From Gammaproteobacteria bacterium (lineage in GTDB: Bacteria; Pseudomonadota; Gammaproteobacteria; Steroidobacterales; Rariloculaceae): DNA of 64,000 nucleotides. The stretch is taken from positions 2,537 through 66,536 of the forward strand of contig DASVDR010000045.1 of assembly GCA_036381015.1 (NCBI GenBank), read 5' to 3'. This document shows, in pieces, positions 43,632-54,518 of this stretch (position 1 is the stretch's first letter; each line of letters opens with the position of its first letter). The position numbers were made by a program, and so were the translations under genes. The notes below the pieces were generated by a model that saw only the letters and a list, made by a program, of their open reading frames with translations, made no database searches and was not told where the DNA came from.

Positions 43632-44456
43632 CTACCACGGTGCGATAGTGCCGTCGTGGTTGAAGAAACGGCCGCTGTCCTCGAGGGTTGCCTTCTCGAT
43701 CGTCTCGATCATGCCGCGCACGCTCACATCCGTCTCGATCATGCCGGGATAGCCCTCGAGGTACGATTGGCGCTCGGTCAGCACGGGACCGGGGTTCAGC
43801 ATGACGACGGTGACGCCGTCGTCCTTTTCCTCGCGTGCGACGAGCTGCATCGCGCGGTTCAGCGCGGCCTTGCTCGCCCGGTAGAAGATTGCGCCCGAGC
43901 CCGCGAGAGGCTCGGTCAGCGAGCCGTTCGTGGAGCTGATCGCGACGATCTTGCGCTGCTCGCTCGCCTTCACGTGCTCGATGAACGCCTCCGAGACCAT
44001 CAGCGGCCCTTTGACGTTCACGGCCAGGATCGTGTCCAACAGCGGGAAGTAGAGGTTGCCGAACGTCTGATTGCTCCAGTCGCCGGGGCAGTCCTCGGAA
44101 TCGCAGGCGCTGCGGTCGTTGTATACGCCGGCATTGTTTAGCAGCACGTCGATCGGCACATCGGCGAGCTTCTCGGCGAGCGCGGCGATCTGGTCCGGCT
44201 TCGTGACGTCCAAGCGCTCGACCCGAACGTTGTCGTACTTCGATTGAAGCTCGGCGAGCGTGTCCGGTATCGACGACCGGCGATGCGTGGCGATGACGGT
44301 CCACCCTTTTGCCGCATACTGCTTCGCGAACTCGAGGCCGATGCCGGAATTCGAGCCGGTGATCAGCACCGTCTCAGCGAACGAGCCCGGCGCGCACAGG
44401 ATCGCGCCGGCGGCCAGGACCGACACGGCAAAAGCTTTCGGCATCCTCACGGTCAT
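43632..44456 (-). CDS. SDR oxidoreductase (CsgA/C-factor-like) with signal peptide
   Basis: MTVRMPKAFAVSVLAAGAILCAPGSFA-ETVLITGSNSGIG; NNAG; YRASK; HPG-like NPGPV. Confidence 0.85.
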   Translation of the reverse strand: MTVRMPKAFAVSVLAAGAILCAPGSFAETVLITGSNSGIGLEFAKQYAAKGWTVIATHRRSSIPDTLAELQSKYDNVRVERLDVTKPDQIAALAEKLADVPIDVLLNNAGVYNDRSACDSEDCPGDWSNQTFGNLYFPLLDTILAVNVKGPLMVSEAFIEHVKASEQRKIVAISSTNGSLTEPLAGSGAIFYRASKAALNRAMQLVAREEKDDGVTVVMLNPGPVLTERQSYLEGYPGMIETDVSVRGMIETIEKATLEDSGRFFNHDGTIAPW

Positions 44457-44619
44457 TCGATTTTCTCCCCGGCCTGGTGTGTTTCCGCGAAAGCGAATTC
44501 TAAAGTCTAACCCGAGCGGATTCAGCCCGACGGGTCGCCGTTCGACGCCGGCTCCCGGAGAAGCACGCGCTGGCACGTATCTTGCCGCGAAGCGGCAGGT
44601 CCGAGTCGAAGCTCCGCCC

Positions 44620-45909
44620 ATGCTCGAAACCCTGAGCGGCGCCGTGCCGGTGCCCTATTGGCTACTCGCGCTTCACCTGCTGATCACGCTCGTTCTGATC
44701 GCCGTCGTGTGGTCGCTGAAGCATCGCCGCGACCCGCATTACCGCATCGAGAGCGATGCGCCGATCGCGGAAATGATGCCGTCGATCGTCGGGCTCACGC
44801 ACGGCCAGATCGTTCCCGGCAACGCGGTCGACTTCGTCGAGAACGGCGCTTTCTTCGACGCGCTGCTGCGCGACATCGCGGCCGCAGAGCGGTCGATTCA
44901 CTTCGAGACGTTTTTGTGGAAGGCGGGGGAGATCGAGCGGCGCCTGGTCGAAGCGCTCGCCGCCCGGAGCCGAGCCGGCGTGCGCGTGCGTGTGCTCGTC
45001 GACGCGAACGGCGGCAAGGGCATGAGCGAGGAGGCGGAGCGCGTCCTGCGCACTTCGGGGTGCACTGTGGCGCGATATCACCCCGGCGGGCTGCGCTCGC
45101 TAGGCCGCCTGAACAGCCGCGACCACCGCAAGCTCGCGGTGCTGGATGGGCGGCTCGCGTACGTCGGCGGACACTGCGTCGTCGACAGCTGGCTCGGCGA
45201 TGCCGAGGACGCCGAGCATTTCCGCGACATCTCGGCGCGCCTTCGCGGGCCCGTCGTGCACGCGCTCCAGTCCGCGTTCAGCGAGACCTGGGTGGTGACG
45301 ACCGGCGAGCTTTTCGCCGGCGAGGATGTTTTTCCGACGCTCGAGCCGGAAGGCGACACGCCCGTGCATGTGGCGAGGCTCAGACTGTCGGGTACGGCGT
45401 CGAGCGTGAAGATTCTGCATCATCTCGCGATCTGCTGTGCCCAGGAGCGGATCACGATCCAGAACCCGTACTTCCTTCCGGATTCCGACGGCATCGACCT
45501 GCTCGCCCACGCCGTCCAGCGCGGTGTGCAGGTGCGCGTGATGACGCCGTCGAGCGGCGCGTCCGACTTGGCGATCGTGCAGCACGCCGCCCACTCGAAC
45601 TACGCGAAGCTGCTCTCGGCAGGCGTGCGGCTTTACGAGTACCGGAAGACGCTGCTGCACCAGAAGGTCATGGTCGTCGACGGCCGGTGGTGCGCTTTCG
45701 GCTCGAGCAACTTCGACGACCGCTCCTTCGAGATCAACGAGGAGATCGTGCTCGGCTTCGACGATCCGAGGATCGCCGAGCGGCTCGAGCAGATCTTCGA
45801 GCGCGATGCGAAGGATTGCGTCGAGCTCACGACCGACTCGTGGTCGAGGCGCAGCATCGGCCATCGGCTGCTGGACGGGACGTCGTACCTGCTGAAGGAG
45901 CAGCTATGA
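44620..45909 (+). CDS. cls: Cardiolipin synthase / phospholipase D family
   Basis: N-terminal TM helix; two HKD motifs HRKLAVLD and HQKVMVVD; GSSNFD. Confidence 0.9.
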   Translation: MLETLSGAVPVPYWLLALHLLITLVLIAVVWSLKHRRDPHYRIESDAPIAEMMPSIVGLTHGQIVPGNAVDFVENGAFFDALLRDIAAAERSIHFETFLWKAGEIERRLVEALAARSRAGVRVRVLVDANGGKGMSEEAERVLRTSGCTVARYHPGGLRSLGRLNSRDHRKLAVLDGRLAYVGGHCVVDSWLGDAEDAEHFRDISARLRGPVVHALQSAFSETWVVTTGELFAGEDVFPTLEPEGDTPVHVARLRLSGTASSVKILHHLAICCAQERITIQNPYFLPDSDGIDLLAHAVQRGVQVRVMTPSSGASDLAIVQHAAHSNYAKLLSAGVRLYEYRKTLLHQKVMVVDGRWCAFGSSNFDDRSFEINEEIVLGFDDPRIAERLEQIFERDAKDCVELTTDSWSRRSIGHRLLDGTSYLLKEQL

Positions 45910-45918
45910 CGGCAGCGC

Positions 45919-45943
45919 GGCGGCCGGCCGCTCGCCGGCCGCC
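45919..45943. terminator. GC hairpin between convergent genes
   Basis: GGCGGCCGGC-CGCTC-GCCGGCCGCC, perfect 10-bp stem. Confidence 0.5.
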
Positions 45944-46030
45944 CTAGCTTTGAATCCGTTTCGCTTCGGCCGCCGCCTTGTTCCGTGAACGGAATCGGTG
46001 CGCGGCTTCGGCCGCAAGCTCAGTCGGCTC

Positions 46031-46438
46031 TCAGGAGCGCTCCTCGATCAGCTCGAGGGCCCTTTGCAACAGCTGCGGGTCCGCGTTGACGGCTTGCACG
46101 ACCATGTTGTACTTCTCGGGCGTCCAGCCGCGTTCCGCGATCTTATCGAAGCTTTCTTGCTGCATGCGGACTTGAACGTCCTGCGCTTCCTGTTCCGTCT
46201 CGACGGCGGCAAGCTCCTCTTCGAACTTATTGAGCGTCGCCTCGAGGTCGACGTAGATGTCGGCGAAGGTCTCGAGATCCTCGTCGGACACGGCTGCTCC
46301 CTCCGGGGGTGTGTCCGGCGCCGGCTGCTCGGCCGGCGGTGCCGGCTGCTGCGGCGGCGGCGCCGGTTCCTGGCCGACCGCGATCGAGGTCAGTGCGAGG
46401 GCCGCCCCGGCCGCCAACGGCATCACTAGTCGTCTCAT
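46031..46438 (-). CDS. DUF4168 domain exported protein
   Basis: Signal peptide, Pro/Gln linker, VSDEDLETFA...KYNMVVQAVNADPQL. Confidence 0.78.
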   Translation of the reverse strand: MRRLVMPLAAGAALALTSIAVGQEPAPPPQQPAPPAEQPAPDTPPEGAAVSDEDLETFADIYVDLEATLNKFEEELAAVETEQEAQDVQVRMQQESFDKIAERGWTPEKYNMVVQAVNADPQLLQRALELIEERS

Positions 46439-46512
46439 CGGAACCTCCTGATTTGGAACGAGCAACGGGCTCTGCAAGTCGCGTGCCACGCGCTCGCGGC
46501 GCCCGAGCGCGA

Positions 46513-47910
46513 TCAGGAGCCTTCGGGGCAAATGCCTTCCTCGCCGACCGCGGCCGTCTCCGGAAACGGGGCCCCGCCGCCGGGTCCGGTCAGGCTCACG
46601 CTCGTCGACAACGTGAATCGCGCGTCTCCTTCGCCGAACGCCGCCTCGGCGAACATCGCCTTGTAGCCGCCGATCGGAGCGGCGTCCTCGAAGACGAAGA
46701 CGCCGTCCTCGGCCGGCTCCGCGGGCCGCGACGAAAACCGCTCCTCGCGGAAGTCGGTGTCCTCGGAAGCCGCCGTCCAAACGCTGACGGCGGCGGGAAC
46801 GGGGTCGCCCGTGACGCAGACGCGAAGGCCGTCCGACCCGTTCTCGAACTCCCACTCGAGCCGCGGCAGCGGCTCGTCCGCTTCGCCGTTGCGATGCATC
46901 GCGTCGAGCGCCGGGATCAGCCGCGCGAGATCCTCGATGTCGTGGCCGTCGTTCGGGAGGTAGAGCACCCGTTTAGGCTCCGGCAGGCCGTTCCAGTAGA
47001 GATTCAGCGAGTCGATCGGGAAATAGGCGTCGTTCGTCGCGATGACGACGAGCTTCGGCTGCGTGAGCTGGCGGCGATAGCTGTAGGGGTCGACGATGCG
47101 TCGCAGCGCGCCTCCCTGGTCCGTGCCGAGCACGTCATCGAGCCCTCGGCTCGTATAAGGAGCGATCTCTTGCGACAACGCGCCCCAGATCGCCTCCTGG
47201 TGAGGCAGGTGGGCCTCGAAGTTCAAGACGTCGATGACGATCGGCACGAGCGTCGCCGCGCGCGGCTCGACCGCGCCCGTGAGCCAGGTCGTCCAGCCGC
47301 GCTTCGAGCCGCCCAGCACCGTGAAGCGCTCGATGCCGAGGTTCCACTCGGTCGACGTGAAAGCCTGCACGGCGTCCATCGCGCGAACGGCCGACTTCAC
47401 CATCGGCAGCAACAAGGGCCACTCCGCGTCGCCGGTTTCGAGAAATTCCTGAAACGTGTGCGCGATCAGATCGTCCTCGCGCAATCCGAACATCGGCTGG
47501 AACGGCACCTGGGCGAGAACGGCGACCACCGTGCCGAGCTCCTGGGCAATCCCGATGAAGAGCGGCGCCTCCTCGGGGAGCTCCGCAGCCGTGTTCGTGT
47601 CGTAGCTTTCGCGCCAGCGGCCGCCGCCGATGACGAGCATGCCCTGGCGAATTCCGGGATCGATGTCGTCGGGCCTGATGAGATAGAGCTGGTGCTTCCA
47701 CAACACGTCGCGCCAGGTTTGCGAGTGCAAACGAAGCTCGACGACCTCGGCGCCCGGCGCCTGGTAGCGCGCTTGCACATGCCAGCTGAAGGTCGGGTCG
47801 GGCGCCTCGACGTAATCCCGGAGCGCGGTCTCGGGCGGGCTGTCCGGCTCCGCATGCACGCCGCCGGCGAGTAGACCGAGCAGTGCCAGAGCCGCGGTAT
47901 TTCTGTTCAT
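46513..47910 (-). CDS. pqaA: PhoPQ-activated pathogenicity-related protein PqaA family (exported hydrolase)
   Basis: Signal peptide; SQTWR...WKH, QVPFQP, PMVKSAVRAMD, GGSKRGWTTW, DPYSY, YLPNDGH. Confidence 0.85.
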   Translation of the reverse strand: MNRNTAALALLGLLAGGVHAEPDSPPETALRDYVEAPDPTFSWHVQARYQAPGAEVVELRLHSQTWRDVLWKHQLYLIRPDDIDPGIRQGMLVIGGGRWRESYDTNTAAELPEEAPLFIGIAQELGTVVAVLAQVPFQPMFGLREDDLIAHTFQEFLETGDAEWPLLLPMVKSAVRAMDAVQAFTSTEWNLGIERFTVLGGSKRGWTTWLTGAVEPRAATLVPIVIDVLNFEAHLPHQEAIWGALSQEIAPYTSRGLDDVLGTDQGGALRRIVDPYSYRRQLTQPKLVVIATNDAYFPIDSLNLYWNGLPEPKRVLYLPNDGHDIEDLARLIPALDAMHRNGEADEPLPRLEWEFENGSDGLRVCVTGDPVPAAVSVWTAASEDTDFREERFSSRPAEPAEDGVFVFEDAAPIGGYKAMFAEAAFGEGDARFTLSTSVSLTGPGGGAPFPETAAVGEEGICPEGS

Positions 47911-47942
47911 GAGCGAATCAGTGCAAGCGGCATGCCATCCAC

Positions 47943-48010
47943 GTGCATTCGGTGCCGGACATGCGTACGGTGCCCGACATGCGTTCGGTGCATTCGGTAC
48001 CGGACACGCA
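47943..48010. repeat. Degenerate 18-bp tandem repeat in a divergent intergenic region
   Basis: CATTCGGTGCCGGACATG / CGTACGGTGCCCGACATG / CGTTCGGTG / CATTCGGTACCGGACACG. Confidence 0.5.
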
Positions 48011-48116
48011 TTGCAAGGGCATTCGAGCGCGGTCGCGGCATGACCGGCGCGTCCGCGAGCGAGGCACCGGTCGTCCGCGAGCTCGAGCGTCGCGCCGAAT
48101 TCATCGAGGATGCTCT

Positions 48117-50012
48117 ATGATGAGGCTCGAGGCGAATCGCATGACTCTCCCCGGGAAGAAAATCGTTCTCGCGGCCGCAGCGCTCGCTTTCCTGTGCAGC
48201 GGCGCCGCGTCGGCGCAGCCCGAGTGGCGCTGGTCCCGATCTTCCAAGATCGTCGTGGTTCCGGACATTCACGGCGCGTACTCCGAGCTCGTGGCGCTCC
48301 TCGAAGCGACCGATCTCGTCGACGCGAACCTCGACTGGATCGGCGGCGATGCGACCTTGGTGACGCTCGGCGACCTGGTCGATCGAGGCGCGGGCTCGCG
48401 GAAGGTCCTGGACTTGCTGATGCGCTTGCAACGCCGCGCGGCGGAGCAAGGCGGCGCGGTGCACGTCCTGCTCGGGAACCACGAGCTCATGAATCTGACC
48501 GGAGATTTGCGCTACGTCTCGCAAGCCGATTATGCCGCGTTTACGGATGAAGAGTCGCCGGCTTTGCGTGCGTCGGCCTACGAGCGCTTCCTCGCCGACC
48601 GCCGCGCGGCGGGCGGCTCCGAAGCCGACGCGAGAGCCGCTTTCGAGCGTCTTTACCCGCCGGGCTTTTTTGCACGCGAGCGCGCCTTTCGGGCCGACGG
48701 CAGGTACGGGACGTGGCTGCTGACGCTGCCCGCGCTGATCGTCGTCAACGACACGGCGTTCGTTCACGGCGGGCTGCCCGAGATCGTGGCGAGCACCGGA
48801 GCGGCGGCGCTGAATCAGCAGATCGGCGACGACCTTCGCCGCTACCTGCGTCTGCGGGCCCGCCTCGTGGAAGCGGGAGTCTTACCCGCATTCGATCCCA
48901 GGCAGGACCTGGAGCTCGCGCGTGCGGCACGCGGGAACCTGCCGCCGGCGCCCGAAGCCCCGGCGCCCGATGTCCCCGCGTTCGACGCCGCGCCGCCCGA
49001 CGCGGAGCTTGCGAATCTGCTCGACGCGTTCCTCGCCCTCGCGGAGGCGCCGGAGCTCGGCGTCGACGGTCCGCTTTGGTACCGAGGCTCCGTGTACTGC
49101 AATCCGTTTCTGGAAGAGCCCGTGCTCGCGGCGGCGCTCGATCGGCTGGAAGCGGCGCGCGTCGTGGTCGGCCATACGCCGACGGAGGATCGCCGGCCGC
49201 GGGAGCTGTACGACGGCCGGCTCATCATGCTCGATACGGGGATGTTGACCGCTTACTACGCGGGCCGCCCCGCCGCGCTCGTCATTGACGGCGAGCGGAC
49301 GCTCGTGCAGGAGCTTGGAGCCGAGGAGCCGGTGCCGCTCGAGCGCGGGAGGCTCGAGGCGGACGGCCTCACGGAAGCGCAGGTGCTCGAAACGCTCTCG
49401 CAGGGAGCGGTGAAGGCCCTCGAGGACGGGGCGAGGTTTCGTGCGACCACCCGGGTGCAGGTGCTCCACAACGGCAAGAGCATCGAGGCCCTCTTTTATC
49501 CGCGGGGACGTGCGGCGGACCGCGAGCTTGCGGCCTATCGTCTCGACCGCCTGCTCAGTGTGAATCTCGTGCCGCCCACGGTCGAGCGTGAGGTCGAGGG
49601 GGAGCGCGGCGCCTTGCAGCTCGTGTATCGAGACGCGATCACCGAGTCCGAACGGATCGAGCAACGAACGCCGCTCGGCGGATGGTGCCCCATCGAGCCC
49701 CAAGCCGAGCTCATGCGGGTGTTCGACCTGTTGACCGCCAATACGGGGCGGACGGGAGACAACATCCTCTACCGTCGCGAATCTTCGGTGCTGAAGCTCG
49801 TCGACCACGCGGAGGCCTTCGGGGCCGCCGGCCGGCTGCGCCTGCGGCGAGGCTCGGTCGAGCTGACGCCGGCGCTTCGCGCTGCTCTCGCATCGCTCGA
49901 TCGAAATACGCTCGAATCGGCAATCGGGCAGTGGATCGACGCCGACGAGATCGAAGCCTTGCTCGAGCGGCGCGATGCGCTGCTCGAGCAAGCGGCGTCG
50001 TCCACCCGTTGA
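48117..50012 (+). CDS. Exported PPP-type metallophosphoesterase (Shewanella-like phosphatase) fused to a degenerate atypical kinase-like domain
   Basis: Signal peptide ending GAASA-Q; DIHG, GDLVDRG, GNHE, FVHGG, GHTP; C-terminal RELAAYRLDRLL..NLVPPTVER...FDLLTANTGR...NIL...LVDHAEAF. Start may be 48141. Confidence 0.85.
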   Translation: MMRLEANRMTLPGKKIVLAAAALAFLCSGAASAQPEWRWSRSSKIVVVPDIHGAYSELVALLEATDLVDANLDWIGGDATLVTLGDLVDRGAGSRKVLDLLMRLQRRAAEQGGAVHVLLGNHELMNLTGDLRYVSQADYAAFTDEESPALRASAYERFLADRRAAGGSEADARAAFERLYPPGFFARERAFRADGRYGTWLLTLPALIVVNDTAFVHGGLPEIVASTGAAALNQQIGDDLRRYLRLRARLVEAGVLPAFDPRQDLELARAARGNLPPAPEAPAPDVPAFDAAPPDAELANLLDAFLALAEAPELGVDGPLWYRGSVYCNPFLEEPVLAAALDRLEAARVVVGHTPTEDRRPRELYDGRLIMLDTGMLTAYYAGRPAALVIDGERTLVQELGAEEPVPLERGRLEADGLTEAQVLETLSQGAVKALEDGARFRATTRVQVLHNGKSIEALFYPRGRAADRELAAYRLDRLLSVNLVPPTVEREVEGERGALQLVYRDAITESERIEQRTPLGGWCPIEPQAELMRVFDLLTANTGRTGDNILYRRESSVLKLVDHAEAFGAAGRLRLRRGSVELTPALRAALASLDRNTLESAIGQWIDADEIEALLERRDALLEQAASSTR

Positions 50013-50118: not shown

Positions 50119-52632
50119 TCAACGCGATGCATCCGGTGCCGATAGGCGCCGGCACGCGCGCACGATCTCCTCTCCCTCGGATGACCCGATCGCGCTGAAG
50201 AACTCGTCGAGATACGCCTGCGCCTTTTCGCGGGCGCGATCTTCGAGCCCGGGAATCTCGTCGACGAGCTCGGAGACCGCGGTTTGTCGGGTTAGAAAGC
50301 GCTCGAAGAGCGGCTGCCACTGGAGGTCCGAATGGCAGAAACCTCGATACAAGCGCTCCGTGACCGAACGGATCGGCAGCTTCGGCGACGGCCCGGCGTA
50401 GGAAGCGTCGACGAGGCCCGAGAAGTCGAAGTCGTACGGTACGGCCGTCACGAGCCCGTCGGCGTCGACGAAGCCGGCGACGTTGTGACCCGCGATCGCG
50501 GACCAGTCCGTGTTCCCGATCAGGTATTGAAACAGCTCGAAGGTGGCCAGCTCACGAGCATCGGTCTCGCCTGGATCGAGCTCGCCCTCCGGCTGCAACG
50601 TCGCGTGCAGCCGCTTCGCAAGAGAATCGAAGTGCTCGGTAAAGAAGGCGTAACGCTGAACCTCGCGGCTGCGTCGCCGCCCCTCGTCCCGATAGGTGAT
50701 TCGAGCGAGCCGAACCCGCAGGCTCTTGTCGGTCAGCAGGTTGTAGATTCGATACGCGAGGTACTCTTTCAGCACGTACTGCTCATAGGCAGCGCTCTCG
50801 CGGCAGTGAGTCGTCAGCGGCAGCATCGTTTGGCCTTCGAACGGCGTGCCTTCAGCCCCGGCGGCAAAGAACACGAACAGCGGCGGCACGGCGCAATTGC
50901 CGGACTCGTTCCGCCAAACGCCGCGCACGCGCAGACGAACGTCGACGCGCCGCTCCGCACCGTGCCCGTCGCTGACGACGAGCGTAGCCGGCGCGTCCGC
51001 GCAGTCCGACCGCGTCGTGCGGCGGCACAGCGCCTTCGAGGTCATCACGAGCTCCAGCGCGAGAGGTTCGCTTTCGGCGAACAGCGCGTCGCGCTCGAGG
51101 GGCTGCGAGTCGGCGATCAGCGGCTCGGTAGCCGCCGCCTCCGTGATCGTCGACTGGGCGGACGCGTCCTCGGGCGTCGAGAGCGTAACGACGGCCAGCG
51201 CGACAGCGGTCGCGCCGACTGCCGCCCATCGCCGAACGATAGCGGCCGCCCGCGGCGCGGCCCGGCGGCCGGGGTAGCGTTTGCCGATTTGCACGGTCAC
51301 GACGATCCAGACCAATGCGAGGAGCATGTTCACTGCGGCAAATTCGCGAAAACCGAAGCCGAGCCAATTGAGCCCCGCGTAAATCCAGCCGGCCTGCACG
51401 AGGTCGCCCAGGCGCCAGAAGAAGGTGTCGACCGCGGTCTTGCCCTCGTATTGATGCCTGGCCGGCAACGGCAAAAAGAGAGCGTGCCGAGCCGTGTTCA
51501 TGATCGAGTATTCGGTGCTGTTTTCGACAATCTTAACCGCGCGAATGATGCCGAAGATAGGCAGGAAAGCGGCCAGGCCGTAACCGATGAAGGCGACGAT
51601 CGGCAGGATCAGAATTGCTCCCTGAACTCCGATCCAGCGAAAGATCCGCGCTACCAAGCACATTTGCAGCAGCAGGCCGAGCGCGTTGACGGCCATGTAA
51701 TAGTTGCCGTAGAAGGACGCGATCAGATCGCCCTTGTCGAGTCCCGGATCGGCGGCGATCCGTTGATCGGCGTCGCGAATCACGAGCTCGGTCAATATGT
51801 ATTCGCCGGTCGTGTTCACGCAGTTGAGCAGCACGGCGAGCAGCGCGAGCAGCAGCAAGTAGCGATTGCCGAGCACGAGCGTGAATCCGTCGAGCAGGTG
51901 AGCAGAGCCACGACCGGCGGCCGACGGCGCTTGCTCCCGCCTGCCGGACTGCGGAGGCACCGCGTTCGCGCTGCGCTCGACGAGCGGCAGCGTGATCGCG
52001 AGCAGAACGACCGCGACCAGCATCAGGTTCCACGGGCCGAGCCACGGAAAGAGCACGCCGCTCAGCCGCGGTCCGACGAGCGCGCCGACCGCGGCGCCGG
52101 CCATGATCAGGGGAAAAAGGCGTTGGCCGGCCTCGAGGTTGAACGCATGAGCGGCGTGCGCCCAGAGTTGGGCGAGAATGGTGACGCCGAATACCCCGAC
52201 CCACACGTAGTAGGCGAAGCTCACGTCGACGCCGCTGCGACCGAGCAGATAGAAGAGGCCGAGATTGGCCATGAAGAACAGGGTGATCCAGCGGACGAGC
52301 AAGCGCGGTGCGGTGCGCTTGGCCAATCCGCTGTACAACGGCACGCCCACGAGCAAGACGGCCGCGATCGCACCGCAAGCGTAGCTCTTGAGCGCCGCCG
52401 AGCCGCCCGCGAGAAGCAGCGGCTCCCTGATCGTCTTCAAGACGTAGTAGCAGACGAGCAGCAGCAACGCGTAGGCCGCGAAGAGCGCCGCGCTTTTCCC
52501 CTCTCCCGGCCGGACGGTCGTGAACAGACCGAAAACCCGTTCGGAAAGCGAGCGCTTCGAAGCACGCCGAGCGGCGGCCGCGTCGGTTTCCGCCGCCAAG
52601 GATTCGAAGCCGGTCGTCGTCGCTGCGTTCAT
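50119..52632 (-). CDS. NTT/TLC (Npt1/Npt2-like ATP/ADP translocase) family transporter fused to a C-terminal CotH-like kinase-fold domain
   Basis: N-terminal about 12 TM with YYVLKTIREPL, YYVWVG, FNLEAGQRLFP, ENSTEYSIMNTARHALFLP, YEGKTAVDTFFWRLGD. Then an extra hydrophobic helix and RG..R...C..PPL, THC, KEYLAYRIYN, GNTDWS...HN, PYDFDFSG. Confidence 0.85.
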   Translation of the reverse strand: MNAATTTGFESLAAETDAAAARRASKRSLSERVFGLFTTVRPGEGKSAALFAAYALLLLVCYYVLKTIREPLLLAGGSAALKSYACGAIAAVLLVGVPLYSGLAKRTAPRLLVRWITLFFMANLGLFYLLGRSGVDVSFAYYVWVGVFGVTILAQLWAHAAHAFNLEAGQRLFPLIMAGAAVGALVGPRLSGVLFPWLGPWNLMLVAVVLLAITLPLVERSANAVPPQSGRREQAPSAAGRGSAHLLDGFTLVLGNRYLLLLALLAVLLNCVNTTGEYILTELVIRDADQRIAADPGLDKGDLIASFYGNYYMAVNALGLLLQMCLVARIFRWIGVQGAILILPIVAFIGYGLAAFLPIFGIIRAVKIVENSTEYSIMNTARHALFLPLPARHQYEGKTAVDTFFWRLGDLVQAGWIYAGLNWLGFGFREFAAVNMLLALVWIVVTVQIGKRYPGRRAAPRAAAIVRRWAAVGATAVALAVVTLSTPEDASAQSTITEAAATEPLIADSQPLERDALFAESEPLALELVMTSKALCRRTTRSDCADAPATLVVSDGHGAERRVDVRLRVRGVWRNESGNCAVPPLFVFFAAGAEGTPFEGQTMLPLTTHCRESAAYEQYVLKEYLAYRIYNLLTDKSLRVRLARITYRDEGRRRSREVQRYAFFTEHFDSLAKRLHATLQPEGELDPGETDARELATFELFQYLIGNTDWSAIAGHNVAGFVDADGLVTAVPYDFDFSGLVDASYAGPSPKLPIRSVTERLYRGFCHSDLQWQPLFERFLTRQTAVSELVDEIPGLEDRAREKAQAYLDEFFSAIGSSEGEEIVRACRRLSAPDASR

Positions 52633-52898: not shown

Positions 52899-54518
52899 AT
52901 GGACCAGCGACTGCGACGCGGCTTCCGCATCGGCGCATTCGACGTCGAGCCGCTCTCCGGACGCATCAGCGGCCCCGGCGGCGGCCAGCACGTCCAACCG
53001 AAGGTCATGGACGTGCTCGTCTATCTCGCCGAGCACGCGGGCGAGCTCGTCGAGCGGGACACGCTGCTCGAGCAAGTGTGGCGCCGGATCACCTCGGAGG
53101 AGGTCTTGACGCGCTGCATCAGCGAGCTGCGGCGGGCCTTGGGCGACGACCGGGGCAGCCCCCGCTACATTCAGACGGTGCCGAAACGCGGATACCGGCT
53201 CGTCGAGCCGATCGTGCTCGACCACGAGGAGAGCGAACGTACGCCGCAGGCCGCCGCGGATGGCGGTGCCGCCGCGACGGCCCCGCTGAACCCGCCTTCG
53301 CCCTCCAGCGCCATGGCCGCGATCGCCGTGCTGCCGTTCGAGAATCACTCTGCGGATCCGGCCGTCTCGTTCATCGGGGACGCGTTCGCGGCCGAGCTCC
53401 ACAGCACGCTCGCACGCGTCGACCGCCTGCGGGTCGCGTCCCGCCGCTCGTCGTTCGTCTTCAAGGATGCGAGCGTCGACATTCGCGAGATCGGCAGGAG
53501 ATTGAATGTCGACTACGTCATCTCGGGCAGCGTGCAATCCAGCAGCGGGTCCGTGCACGTCGTCGCCGAGCTCAACGACGCATCGGGCGGCACCCAGATC
53601 TGGGCGCAAAGCTACGACCGCAAGAGCGAGGATCTGCTCGCGATCGAAAGGGACGTCGCGGGGGCAATCGTCGGCTCGTTCACGACACATCGACTGCGGG
53701 CCGAGACCAATAGCGCGAGACACCGACCCACGAGCAGTCTCGATGCTTGGGGCCTCGTGCAAAAGGCGCGCGCTTTCGCGTTCGAGTACACGCCGAGCGG
53801 CCTGGCGGACGCGATCGAGCCGGTGCGCCGCGCGATCGAGCTCGACAAGGACTATCCGGCCGCGCACGCCATGTTGGCCTCGCTGCTCGTGGAGCGGCTC
53901 GTGAACGGCTGGAGCACGGAGCCGAAGCGCGACGAGTCGGCTGCGCTCGAAGCGGCGGAGAAGGCGGCGACGCTGGCGCCGCAGGACCCGTTCATCCAGA
54001 AGATGGCGAGCCTGGTATGGACCTATTTCGGCGACTACCGCAGGGCCATCGGCTGCCTGCGAAAGGCGGTCGAGTACGCCCCGTTCGATTTTGGCGCGTG
54101 GGGCTACATGGGCTGGCCGCTGACGGCCTCGGGGGAGGAAAAGGACTTGAGCGATCTGCACGGCATACTCGATCGCTTGTTGAGCATGGAGCCGCACCAC
54201 CCGGGGGTTGCGTTCTGGCGTTATCACGAGTCGGTCGCCGCCGTTTGCGAAGGCAAACTCGAAGACGCGCGGGCGTCGGCGGAAGCGGCGCTCGAGCTGC
54301 GGCCGAACCTATCGCTCGCCTGCATGCACCATGCGAACGTGCTCGGCCGGTTGAATCTCAAGAAGGCGGCTCAGGACGCGTTGGAGCGCTGTCGCAAGAT
54401 CAATCCCGCGATGACGCCGAAGCACTTCGAGTCACTGATCGAGCGCATGACCGACAACGAGAGCGTGATCGAGCACAGGCTGGGAGGCCTTCGCAAGATC
54501 GGTGCCTTGCGCGGCTGA
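52899..54518 (+). CDS. OmpR/CadC-type winged-helix regulator with TolB-like/TPR sensory region
   Basis: VQPKVMDVLVYL...LLEQVW...LTRCISELRRAL..YIQTVPKRGYRL; IAVLPFEN; TPR repeats; no TM. Confidence 0.9.
   Translation: MDQRLRRGFRIGAFDVEPLSGRISGPGGGQHVQPKVMDVLVYLAEHAGELVERDTLLEQVWRRITSEEVLTRCISELRRALGDDRGSPRYIQTVPKRGYRLVEPIVLDHEESERTPQAAADGGAAATAPLNPPSPSSAMAAIAVLPFENHSADPAVSFIGDAFAAELHSTLARVDRLRVASRRSSFVFKDASVDIREIGRRLNVDYVISGSVQSSSGSVHVVAELNDASGGTQIWAQSYDRKSEDLLAIERDVAGAIVGSFTTHRLRAETNSARHRPTSSLDAWGLVQKARAFAFEYTPSGLADAIEPVRRAIELDKDYPAAHAMLASLLVERLVNGWSTEPKRDESAALEAAEKAATLAPQDPFIQKMASLVWTYFGDYRRAIGCLRKAVEYAPFDFGAWGYMGWPLTASGEEKDLSDLHGILDRLLSMEPHHPGVAFWRYHESVAAVCEGKLEDARASAEAALELRPNLSLACMHHANVLGRLNLKKAAQDALERCRKINPAMTPKHFESLIERMTDNESVIEHRLGGLRKIGALRG

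Follow-up and report, generated by a model that had tools for sequence, protein, structure and literature searches.

An exported Shelph-type phosphatase carrying a degenerate Fam20-like kinase domain, and its genetic linkage to a putative CotH-like kinase in Gammaproteobacteria

Secreted kinases and pseudokinases are known from animals (Fam20C together with FAM20A) and from spore coats (CotH). Fam20C, Fam20B and FAM20A are atypical kinase folds that act outside the cytosol, as we propose for the system considered here, and FAM20A binds ATP without a metal and without catalysis (PMC7948968). In this work, we analysed a gene at positions 48117..50012 (+ strand) of a 64,000-nucleotide stretch (the window) of contig DASVDR010000045.1, which comes from a soil or sediment gammaproteobacterium of the family Rariloculaceae. 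The gene encodes a three-part protein composed of a Sec-type signal peptide, a Shelph PPP phosphatase and a C-terminal Fam20/PI4KII-related kinase-fold domain that lacks the key catalytic residues. The results lead us to favour, with moderate confidence, an active exported phosphatase that is rigidly tied to a dead scaffold or docking domain and opposes a CotH-like kinase encoded next to it.

The coding sequence specifies 631 residues and a stop codon, with no internal stops. The other start, ATG 48141, was picked by gene callers for an identical database protein (P0003, 623 residues); a purine-rich stretch precedes both candidates, with AGGA located 6 nucleotides upstream of ATG 48117, and the signal peptide is retained with either of them. 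This signal (residues 1-33, 48117..48215, +) comprises K14 and K15, a single hydrophobic segment (residues 16-34) and a predicted cleavage site between ASA and Q, which bears out the export claimed in a preliminary description made from the letters of the window. A hydrophobic N-terminus was present in every homologue compared, and the best explanation is that the protein is destined for the periplasm or beyond.

The N-terminal domain (approximately residues 40-400, 48234..49316, +) accounts for the sole Pfam family seen in the protein, Metallophos, with a score of 46.8 bits against a cut-off of 21.5. Among solved structures, the Shewanella cold-active phosphatases were its best match both in sequence (2z72/1v73, E value 5e-26) and in fold (1v73/2z72, E value 4.5e-18); since these Shewanella proteins (1V73, 2Z72, 2ZBM) are the closest ones solved, the domain can be assigned to the Shelph PPP phosphatases. 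With the Shewanella cold-active protein-tyrosine phosphatase it has in common the metal-binding motifs and the LRYV and WYRG segments. However, the Shewanella enzyme consists of one domain only, some 340 residues long, whereas the protein described here adds a Pro/Ala-rich insert and a 220-residue C-terminal kinase-fold domain. The PPP metal motifs, reported earlier as all intact, were found in full on the + strand: PDIHG (residues 49-53, 48261-48275), GDLVDRG (residues 85-91, 48369-48389), GNHE (residues 120-123, 48474-48485), VHGG (residues 216-219 with H217, 48762-48773) and GHT (residues 352-354 with H353, 49170-49178). They are invariant in 39 homologues and about 98-100% kept across 312 members of the family; judging from these motifs, the phosphatase is presumably active. 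The reciprocal case was also met among the relatives retrieved in a representative search, where one protein (P0327, 588 residues) has degenerate phosphatase motifs (GTVNG, GNLFAK, GKNE) and an intact kinase K/D/N/D signature, and by these signs is a pseudophosphatase fused to a live kinase.

The C-terminal domain (approximately residues 412-631, 49350..50009, +) required profiles, because single-sequence searches of Pfam and PDB gave nothing significant; none of the 120 homologues listed has a Pfam annotation for it, and the protein itself (P0001) gave no Pfam Fam20C match. The elements of the kinase-like pattern proposed in the preliminary description were each located: ELAAY (residues 470-474), VPPTVER (485-491), FDLL (536-539), NTGR (542-545), N549 and VDHAEAF (562-568). 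Residues 461-626 match NCBIfam TIGR03843, the SCO1664 family, with an E value of 6e-12; this is the top curated-family match of the domain, but the score of 45.4 bits falls short of the curated cut-off of 172.4, so the protein does not belong to that family, which is made up of stand-alone proteins whose function is not known. A full-length AlphaFold2 model was confident, with a predicted local distance difference test score (pLDDT) of 91.1 and a predicted template modelling score (pTM) of 0.88. When it was searched with Foldseek, the top PDB folds, phosphatases aside, were PI4KII alpha/beta (4WTV, 4HNE, 9HHM), with E values of about 3e-7, a probability of 1.0 and 200-290 aligned columns. PI4KII alpha/beta (4HNE, 4WTV) are thus the best structural matches of the domain, yet they are only 17-20% identical to it and, unlike the exported degenerate domain considered here, they are lipid kinases that are cytosolic and palmitoylated and keep their catalytic residues.

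The relatives of this domain are of two types, with an intact kinase signature or, as here, with a degenerate one (dead type), and profiles of both point to Fam20. A dead-type profile built of 30 C-terminal domains matched FAM20A (E value 3.3e-5), Fam20B (2.5e-4) and Fam20C (0.015), with ELAAYxLDRLL..VPPTVxR lying over Fam20 AEIAAFHLDRIL..VPPTVGR and FDxLxxNxGR over Fam20 FDFLIGNxDRHH. The intact-type profile gave 2.8e-11 for FAM20A, 1.6e-9 for Fam20B, 8e-8 for Fam20C, 9e-6 for the C. elegans Fam20 and 1e-3 for PI4KII-beta. The matches to Fam20A/B/C span the alphaC segment and the catalytic loop, and the family shares with Fam20 the segments E-[IL]-A-A-[FY]-x-L-D-R-[IL]-L and VPPTV-x-R as well as the loop F-D-x-L-x-x-N-x-D-R. 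Taken together, the TIGR03843, PI4KII-fold and Fam20-profile matches answer the earlier doubt as to whether the domain is kinase-like at all, and the label "PI3/4K/Fam20-like" is accurate, PI4KII by fold and Fam20 by profile. A relative of P0001, P0260 (671 residues), lacks a phosphatase and instead carries a tandem of two Fam20-like domains; it exceeds the Pfam Fam20C gathering score (29.4 vs. 26.8 bits), thus indicating that bona fide members of the Fam20C family exist in prokaryotic or metagenomic data.

To define the family, we compared the C-terminal domain by phmmer with 1.84 billion cluster representatives at a threshold of E <= 1e-3. This yielded 1,474 clusters at 50% identity, most of them proteins of about 600 residues with the domain at the C-terminus. 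A sister branch has the identical architecture, i.e., an N-terminal Metallophos domain and a signal-like N-terminus, together with the full K/E/D/N/D kinase signature, and the members bearing the catalytic Asp further show A-[IV]-F-K, N-x-D-R-x-x-x-N and I-D-H-[ST]-R-[AS]-F. The Lys of these intact relatives aligns with A-[LM]-F-K-P, and their Asp with N-x-D-R-H-H, of the solved Fam20 kinases, where the catalytic Asp would be that of the N-x-D-R-H-H motif.

Comparison with the intact relatives shows what the protein from the window has lost. The segment ALFY (49488..49499, +) places Tyr461 (49497-49499) in the very column of the beta3 Lys, just as the preliminary description had supposed in reading it as a changed AxFK, and the segment NTGR (49740..49751, +) places Gly544 in the column of the catalytic-base Asp of N-x-D-R-x-x-x-N; the Asp-to-Gly change proposed there was therefore real, and only its coordinates, 49739-49752, were one base too wide on each side. 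Neither an intact Lys nor an intact Asp was found relocated elsewhere in the alignment. Moreover, in the joint alignment the GxGxTxP Gly-rich loop of the intact relatives has no counterpart in this protein, the beta3-alphaC loop is about 15-18 residues shorter than in them, and the conserved D-R lies three residues nearer Glu470. The protein does retain Glu470 in alphaC, the metal-binding Asn549 (49761-49763, +) and the DFG-equivalent Asp563 of VDHAEAF (49803..49805, +), but in the dead clade as a whole the positions of Asn549 and Asp563 are variable.

The possibility that the changes were private to this lineage was rejected. Among 39 close homologues (43-76% identity), A-x-F-Y-P is found in 39/39 and N-x-G-R in nearly all, the DFG-equivalent position varying among D, G, E and N. 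In 270 aligned domain instances of the family, the Lys position 461 is occupied by Y in 100, K in 22, V in 22 and I in 17, the catalytic Asp position 544 by G in 143, D in 48 and A in 28, and the DFG-equivalent position 563 by D in 151, G in 71 and E in 22. The Lys-to-Tyr and Asp-to-Gly changes are thus clade-wide, and the sister branch is intact. Canonical kinase activity of the domain can be regarded as excluded by this residue pattern, and nucleotide binding appears unlikely because the Gly-rich and beta3-alphaC loops are lost and the positions of Asn549 and Asp563 vary within the clade. At the same time, E470, R491, E510, C524, Q529, D537 and R545 are invariant in the 39 sequences of 43-76% identity, and by this measure the dead domain is still under constraint.

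One of these residues, Cys524 of the kinase-like domain (49686..49688, +), is the putative disulfide partner of Cys328 of the phosphatase domain (49098..49100, +). Both cysteines are present in 264 sequences, both are absent in 9, and one alone was found in 0, so an interdomain Cys328-Cys524 disulfide probably exists. This covariation, along with the signal peptide, points to an oxidising extracytoplasmic location and to a rigid two-domain unit in both branches of the family.

The gene next to the phosphatase gene and convergent with it (50119..52632, -) appears, from Pfam, NCBIfam, a fold model and its homologues, to encode a fusion of a TLC-like transporter with a CotH-like kinase. The TLC-like domain (about 51229-52632, -) has 12 helices and matches the NCBIfam AAA superfamily with an E value of 5e-5; a 13th helix, resembling a retained signal peptide (51178-51228, -), is followed by ASA and Q (51151-51171) and by the exported CotH-like domain (50122-51150, -), whose GNTDWS (50500-50517), HN and YDFDFSG (50416-50436) are intact. 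Stand-alone homologues of the latter domain are about 350 residues long; they have signal peptides and six conserved Cys, and GNTDWS..HN..YDFDFSG is invariant in them. Its model (pLDDT 88) has B. cereus CotH (5jd9) as the top PDB fold, with an E value of 1.2e-9 and a template modelling score of 0.56. The Pfam CotH score of the neighbour is below the cut-off (20.8 vs. 23.8 bits), and only 14 of 33 members match this family at all.

The gene neighbourhoods of the two types differ sharply. In a tally of 80 species-representative loci, intact-kinase genes stand beside a TLC-like gene in 28 cases, beside a CotH-like gene in 0 and beside neither in 14 (28/42 TLC), whereas dead-kinase genes stand beside a TLC-like gene in 0 cases, beside a CotH-like gene in 31 and beside neither in 8 (31/39 CotH). 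Further dead-type loci nearer to the protein from the window had a CotH-like gene within 2.5 kilobases in 6/6, the same TLC-CotH fusion being present in 2 of these. In the order to which the window belongs, the TLC-adjacent copies are mostly intact, and they include tandem duplicates of the phosphatase-intact kinase gene with its TLC-like neighbour, two pairs in a row (G372:C63, G358:C25, which is L033, and G385:C1). Thus, of the roles suggested earlier for the pseudokinase, partnership with the neighbouring kinase gains strong support from the gene neighbourhood, whereas nucleotide binding is disfavoured by the loop losses and the variable positions of Asn549 and Asp563.

Trees were used to place the loss of catalysis. 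In a FastTree of the C-terminal domains, 205 leaves formed a clade made up of dead domains only (support 0.89). A FastTree drawing suggested several independent losses, each then followed by the gain of CotH; this scenario was dropped, as the better-modelled IQ-TREE run (LG+C20, 55 full-length proteins) leaves the dead lineages unresolved at the base. These lineages are the large CotH-linked clade (support 98), G000+G433 (100), G436+G429 (100), L037 and L076. In the IQ-TREE tree, every intact row lies on one side of a branch with an SH-like approximate likelihood-ratio test (SH-aLRT) support of 87, and that side also includes the degenerate G423. Because all intact rows are set on one side, we interpret the tree as one main loss of the kinase and one secondary loss (G423).

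Family matches were found in 64 of the 151 genomes sampled from the order of the window, covering 25 of 54 genera, while in an even sample of the class a match including the kinase-like domain occurred in only 2 of 300 genomes. The named carriers include Steroidobacteraceae, Woeseiaceae, Halieaceae, Lysobacterales and Chromatiales, with a few Acidobacteriota, Desulfatiglandales and Planctomycetota. The intact type stands beside the transporter in cultured Parahaliea mediterranea DSM 21924 and Parahaliea maris HSLHS9, as well as in cultured Halieaceae bacterium WSDMB12 and 'Thioalkalivibrio' sp. XN8, so genetics is feasible.

These data can be brought together in the following scheme. The ancestor would have been exported and bifunctional, phosphatase and kinase in one, with a TLC-like transporter as its partner, a form that persists intact in the sister branch. 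In one branch, the kinase half would have decayed, an exported CotH-like kinase being almost always encoded alongside, and in the organism studied here and a few relatives this kinase is fused to the TLC-like transporter. The CotH-like enzyme would supply the kinase activity outside the cytoplasm, and the Shelph domain would take those phosphates off, both presumably acting on a shared substrate. The Cys328-Cys524 disulfide would hold the phosphatase rigidly to the dead domain, whose most likely role is docking or scaffolding: as a non-catalytic scaffold, it would keep the phosphatase folded and position it on the kinase or on the shared substrate. A supply of ATP by the TLC-like transporter would fit both the fusion and the pairing of intact kinases with TLC-like genes.

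Several observations weigh against this scheme. The genomes G436, G429 and G423 (98-99% complete) carry dead-type, TLC-adjacent genes and have no CotH-like gene anywhere, so the dead domain is not strictly dependent on that partner. The two genes are found on separate contigs in the closest family-level relative, G343. According to the IQ-TREE analysis, the dead/CotH association represents essentially one evolutionary split, with no independent replicates. A contact between the dead and the CotH-like domains would rest on gene linkage, and the hhalign comparison of the domain families was not significant, with a probability for the CotH-like domain of 0.8% against dead and 3% against intact domains. 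A common origin of the dead and CotH-like domains had been considered, and a recent one was rejected on the basis of BLASTP and hhalign, neither of which was significant, only the catalytic loops being aligned. The TLC assignment of the membrane domain is weak (18.8 bits in Pfam TLC vs. a cut-off of 21), and a sequence search found no solved relative of this part. Moreover, a close TLC-like orthologue is absent from most CotH-linked genomes, so the ATP-supply part of the scheme is not general. Finally, the substrate could be something other than a protein, given that Fam20B acts on a sugar and PI4KII on a lipid. A transporter that always supplies the kinase is made less likely both by the lack of close TLC-like orthologues and by G436 and G429, where a transporter is present and the locus seems to have no kinase of either kind; in these 99%-complete genomes (G436:C3 and G429:C5; L087, L088, L107, L108), the dead-type gene, the TLC-like gene and a Trans_reg_C-TPR regulator gene stand in a row.

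The retention of the dead domain in G436 and G429 without any CotH-like gene makes a purely structural role a serious rival, albeit an unlikely one in our estimation: the domain would be a relic kept for folding and stability of the phosphatase via the disulfide, with no binding or regulatory role. The perfect covariation of the cysteine pair in both branches and the tight packing of the two domains in the model (pTM 0.88) are what such a relic would predict, and most residues conserved in the dead clade (D537, N542, R545, R491, C524) are also conserved in the intact clade and so look structural. However, the full length of about 220 residues is kept in sequences down to about 35-40% identity, and the clade-specific conserved positions (GALQL, TE..R) are more than passive support would seem to need. 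In another reading, the former substrate site of the kinase would still bind a target (a protein, glycan or lipid, phosphorylated or not) and present it to the fused phosphatase. Kinase and phosphatase formed one rigid ancestral unit, suggesting a common substrate, and it is the C-lobe elements (FD..L..N.xR, F568) that were kept while the ATP-side elements were lost; but the catalytic-loop position that touches the acceptor hydroxyl has itself been lost, and we consider substrate targeting of this kind quite improbable.

The readings that leave the domain a ligand or a reaction of its own fare worse. Glu470 of alphaC, Asn549 and Asp563 are kept in this protein, and FAM20A provides a precedent (PMC7948968) for a sensor that binds ATP or another nucleotide without catalysis, thereby tuning the phosphatase or its partner; yet the Gly-rich loop, the beta3 Lys and the acid spacing of the beta3-alphaC loop are all lost, and the Asn549 and Asp563 positions vary in the dead clade (for 563, D in 151, G in 71, E in 22), which leaves a sensor very hard to support. 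A repurposed enzyme would perform a non-canonical reaction with relocated residues, as SelO does in AMPylation and SidJ in glutamylation. Precedents for active "pseudokinases" are cited in PMC7948968, and E470, R491, E510, Q529, D537 and R545 are invariant polar residues of the dead clade that could serve such a reaction. Most of them, however, are common to the intact branch, where ordinary kinase structure explains them, we saw no acidic or basic cluster that is new and specific to the clade, and the nucleotide-binding elements are gone, so that we regard a repurposed enzyme as the least credible explanation of all. The scheme of a scaffold or docking domain that serves the phosphatase against the CotH-like kinase is therefore the one we retain.

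A regulator gene with a winged-helix (Trans_reg_C) domain and TPR (52899..54518, +) is the third recurrent gene of the locus, found again in L001, L111, G436, G429 and many intact-kinase loci. In the 206-nucleotide gap upstream of the phosphatase gene, there are three to four copies of a direct repeat of about 18 nucleotides (47941..48011; core GGTRCCSGACAYGCRT; spacing 18/18/27), the pattern having 3 exact matches within 47941-48011 vs. about 1 expected per whole window at <=2 mismatches; these repeats may be operator sites for the nearby winged-helix regulator. The genes farther upstream (43632-47910) encode an exported short-chain dehydrogenase/reductase (SDR), a PLD-like phospholipase/cardiolipin synthase, a DUF4168 protein and a PhoPQ-activated pathogenicity-related (PF10142) hydrolase; they are ordinary and show no conservation with the module.

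Other dead-type loci have companions of their own. In Woeseiaceae-type loci (L040-L084, for instance L065:5119-5844 and L058:5825-6817; also L114:9928-10632), the CotH-like gene is flanked in 20-25 of 39 loci by a conserved pair, one gene for a membrane protein of the DUF4956 family and one without annotation, of about 330 codons. DUF4956 was not found in the genome of the window, and the other gene has only a distant match there (31% identity), on another contig and not at this locus. Two related loci have a guanylate-cyclase-FHA gene and a PycTM gene between the phosphatase-pseudokinase and CotH-like genes (L003:9801-11355 and L113:9854-11401).

All parts of this system are of known kinds, but their combination, the dichotomy of intact and dead versions and the switch of partners appear to be undescribed. 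In the literature searches, neither a Shelph-Fam20-like fusion nor its gene partners were found described, and this widespread exported phosphatase-kinase fusion of Gram-negatives is absent from Pfam and from the literature searched. In a broader sense, many Gram-negatives might run a dedicated extracytoplasmic phosphorylation cycle in which an exported Fam20- or CotH-like kinase works with a fused Shelph phosphatase and with a TLC-like transporter exporting the nucleotide donor, and in one large branch the decayed Fam20-like kinase might serve, in the manner of FAM20A, as partner or scaffold of a newly recruited CotH-like kinase; we put this generalisation forward tentatively, as it is rather doubtful in our own judgement. 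If true, signalling or modification of the envelope would depend on ATP in a compartment generally regarded as free of it. The family amounts to a natural experiment, in which a single architecture exists both intact and dead and the gene partners change to match, and it makes testable the role of a bacterial pseudokinase after catalysis has been lost, as well as periplasmic phosphorylation and the source of its phosphate donor.

Among the described systems, the Bacillus CotH kinase (5JD9/5JDA) is the top fold of the exported domain of the neighbour, which has intact motifs of the D/N/DxD type; unlike Bacillus CotH, this domain belongs to a Gram-negative envelope, carries six conserved Cys and forms part of a fusion with a transporter. 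The FAM20A-FAM20C pair may serve as a useful analogy for the locus, in that there, too, an active secreted kinase is accompanied by a copy that has lost catalysis (PMC7948968, PMC5865150). The likeness has its bounds: FAM20A is without one metal-binding Glu and still binds ATP, whereas the domain described here is without the Lys, the catalytic Asp and the Gly-rich loop. Furthermore, its presumed partner is a CotH-like kinase and not a Fam20 paralogue, hhalign having given no significant match between this kinase and the dead domain, and the dead domain is fused to a phosphatase.

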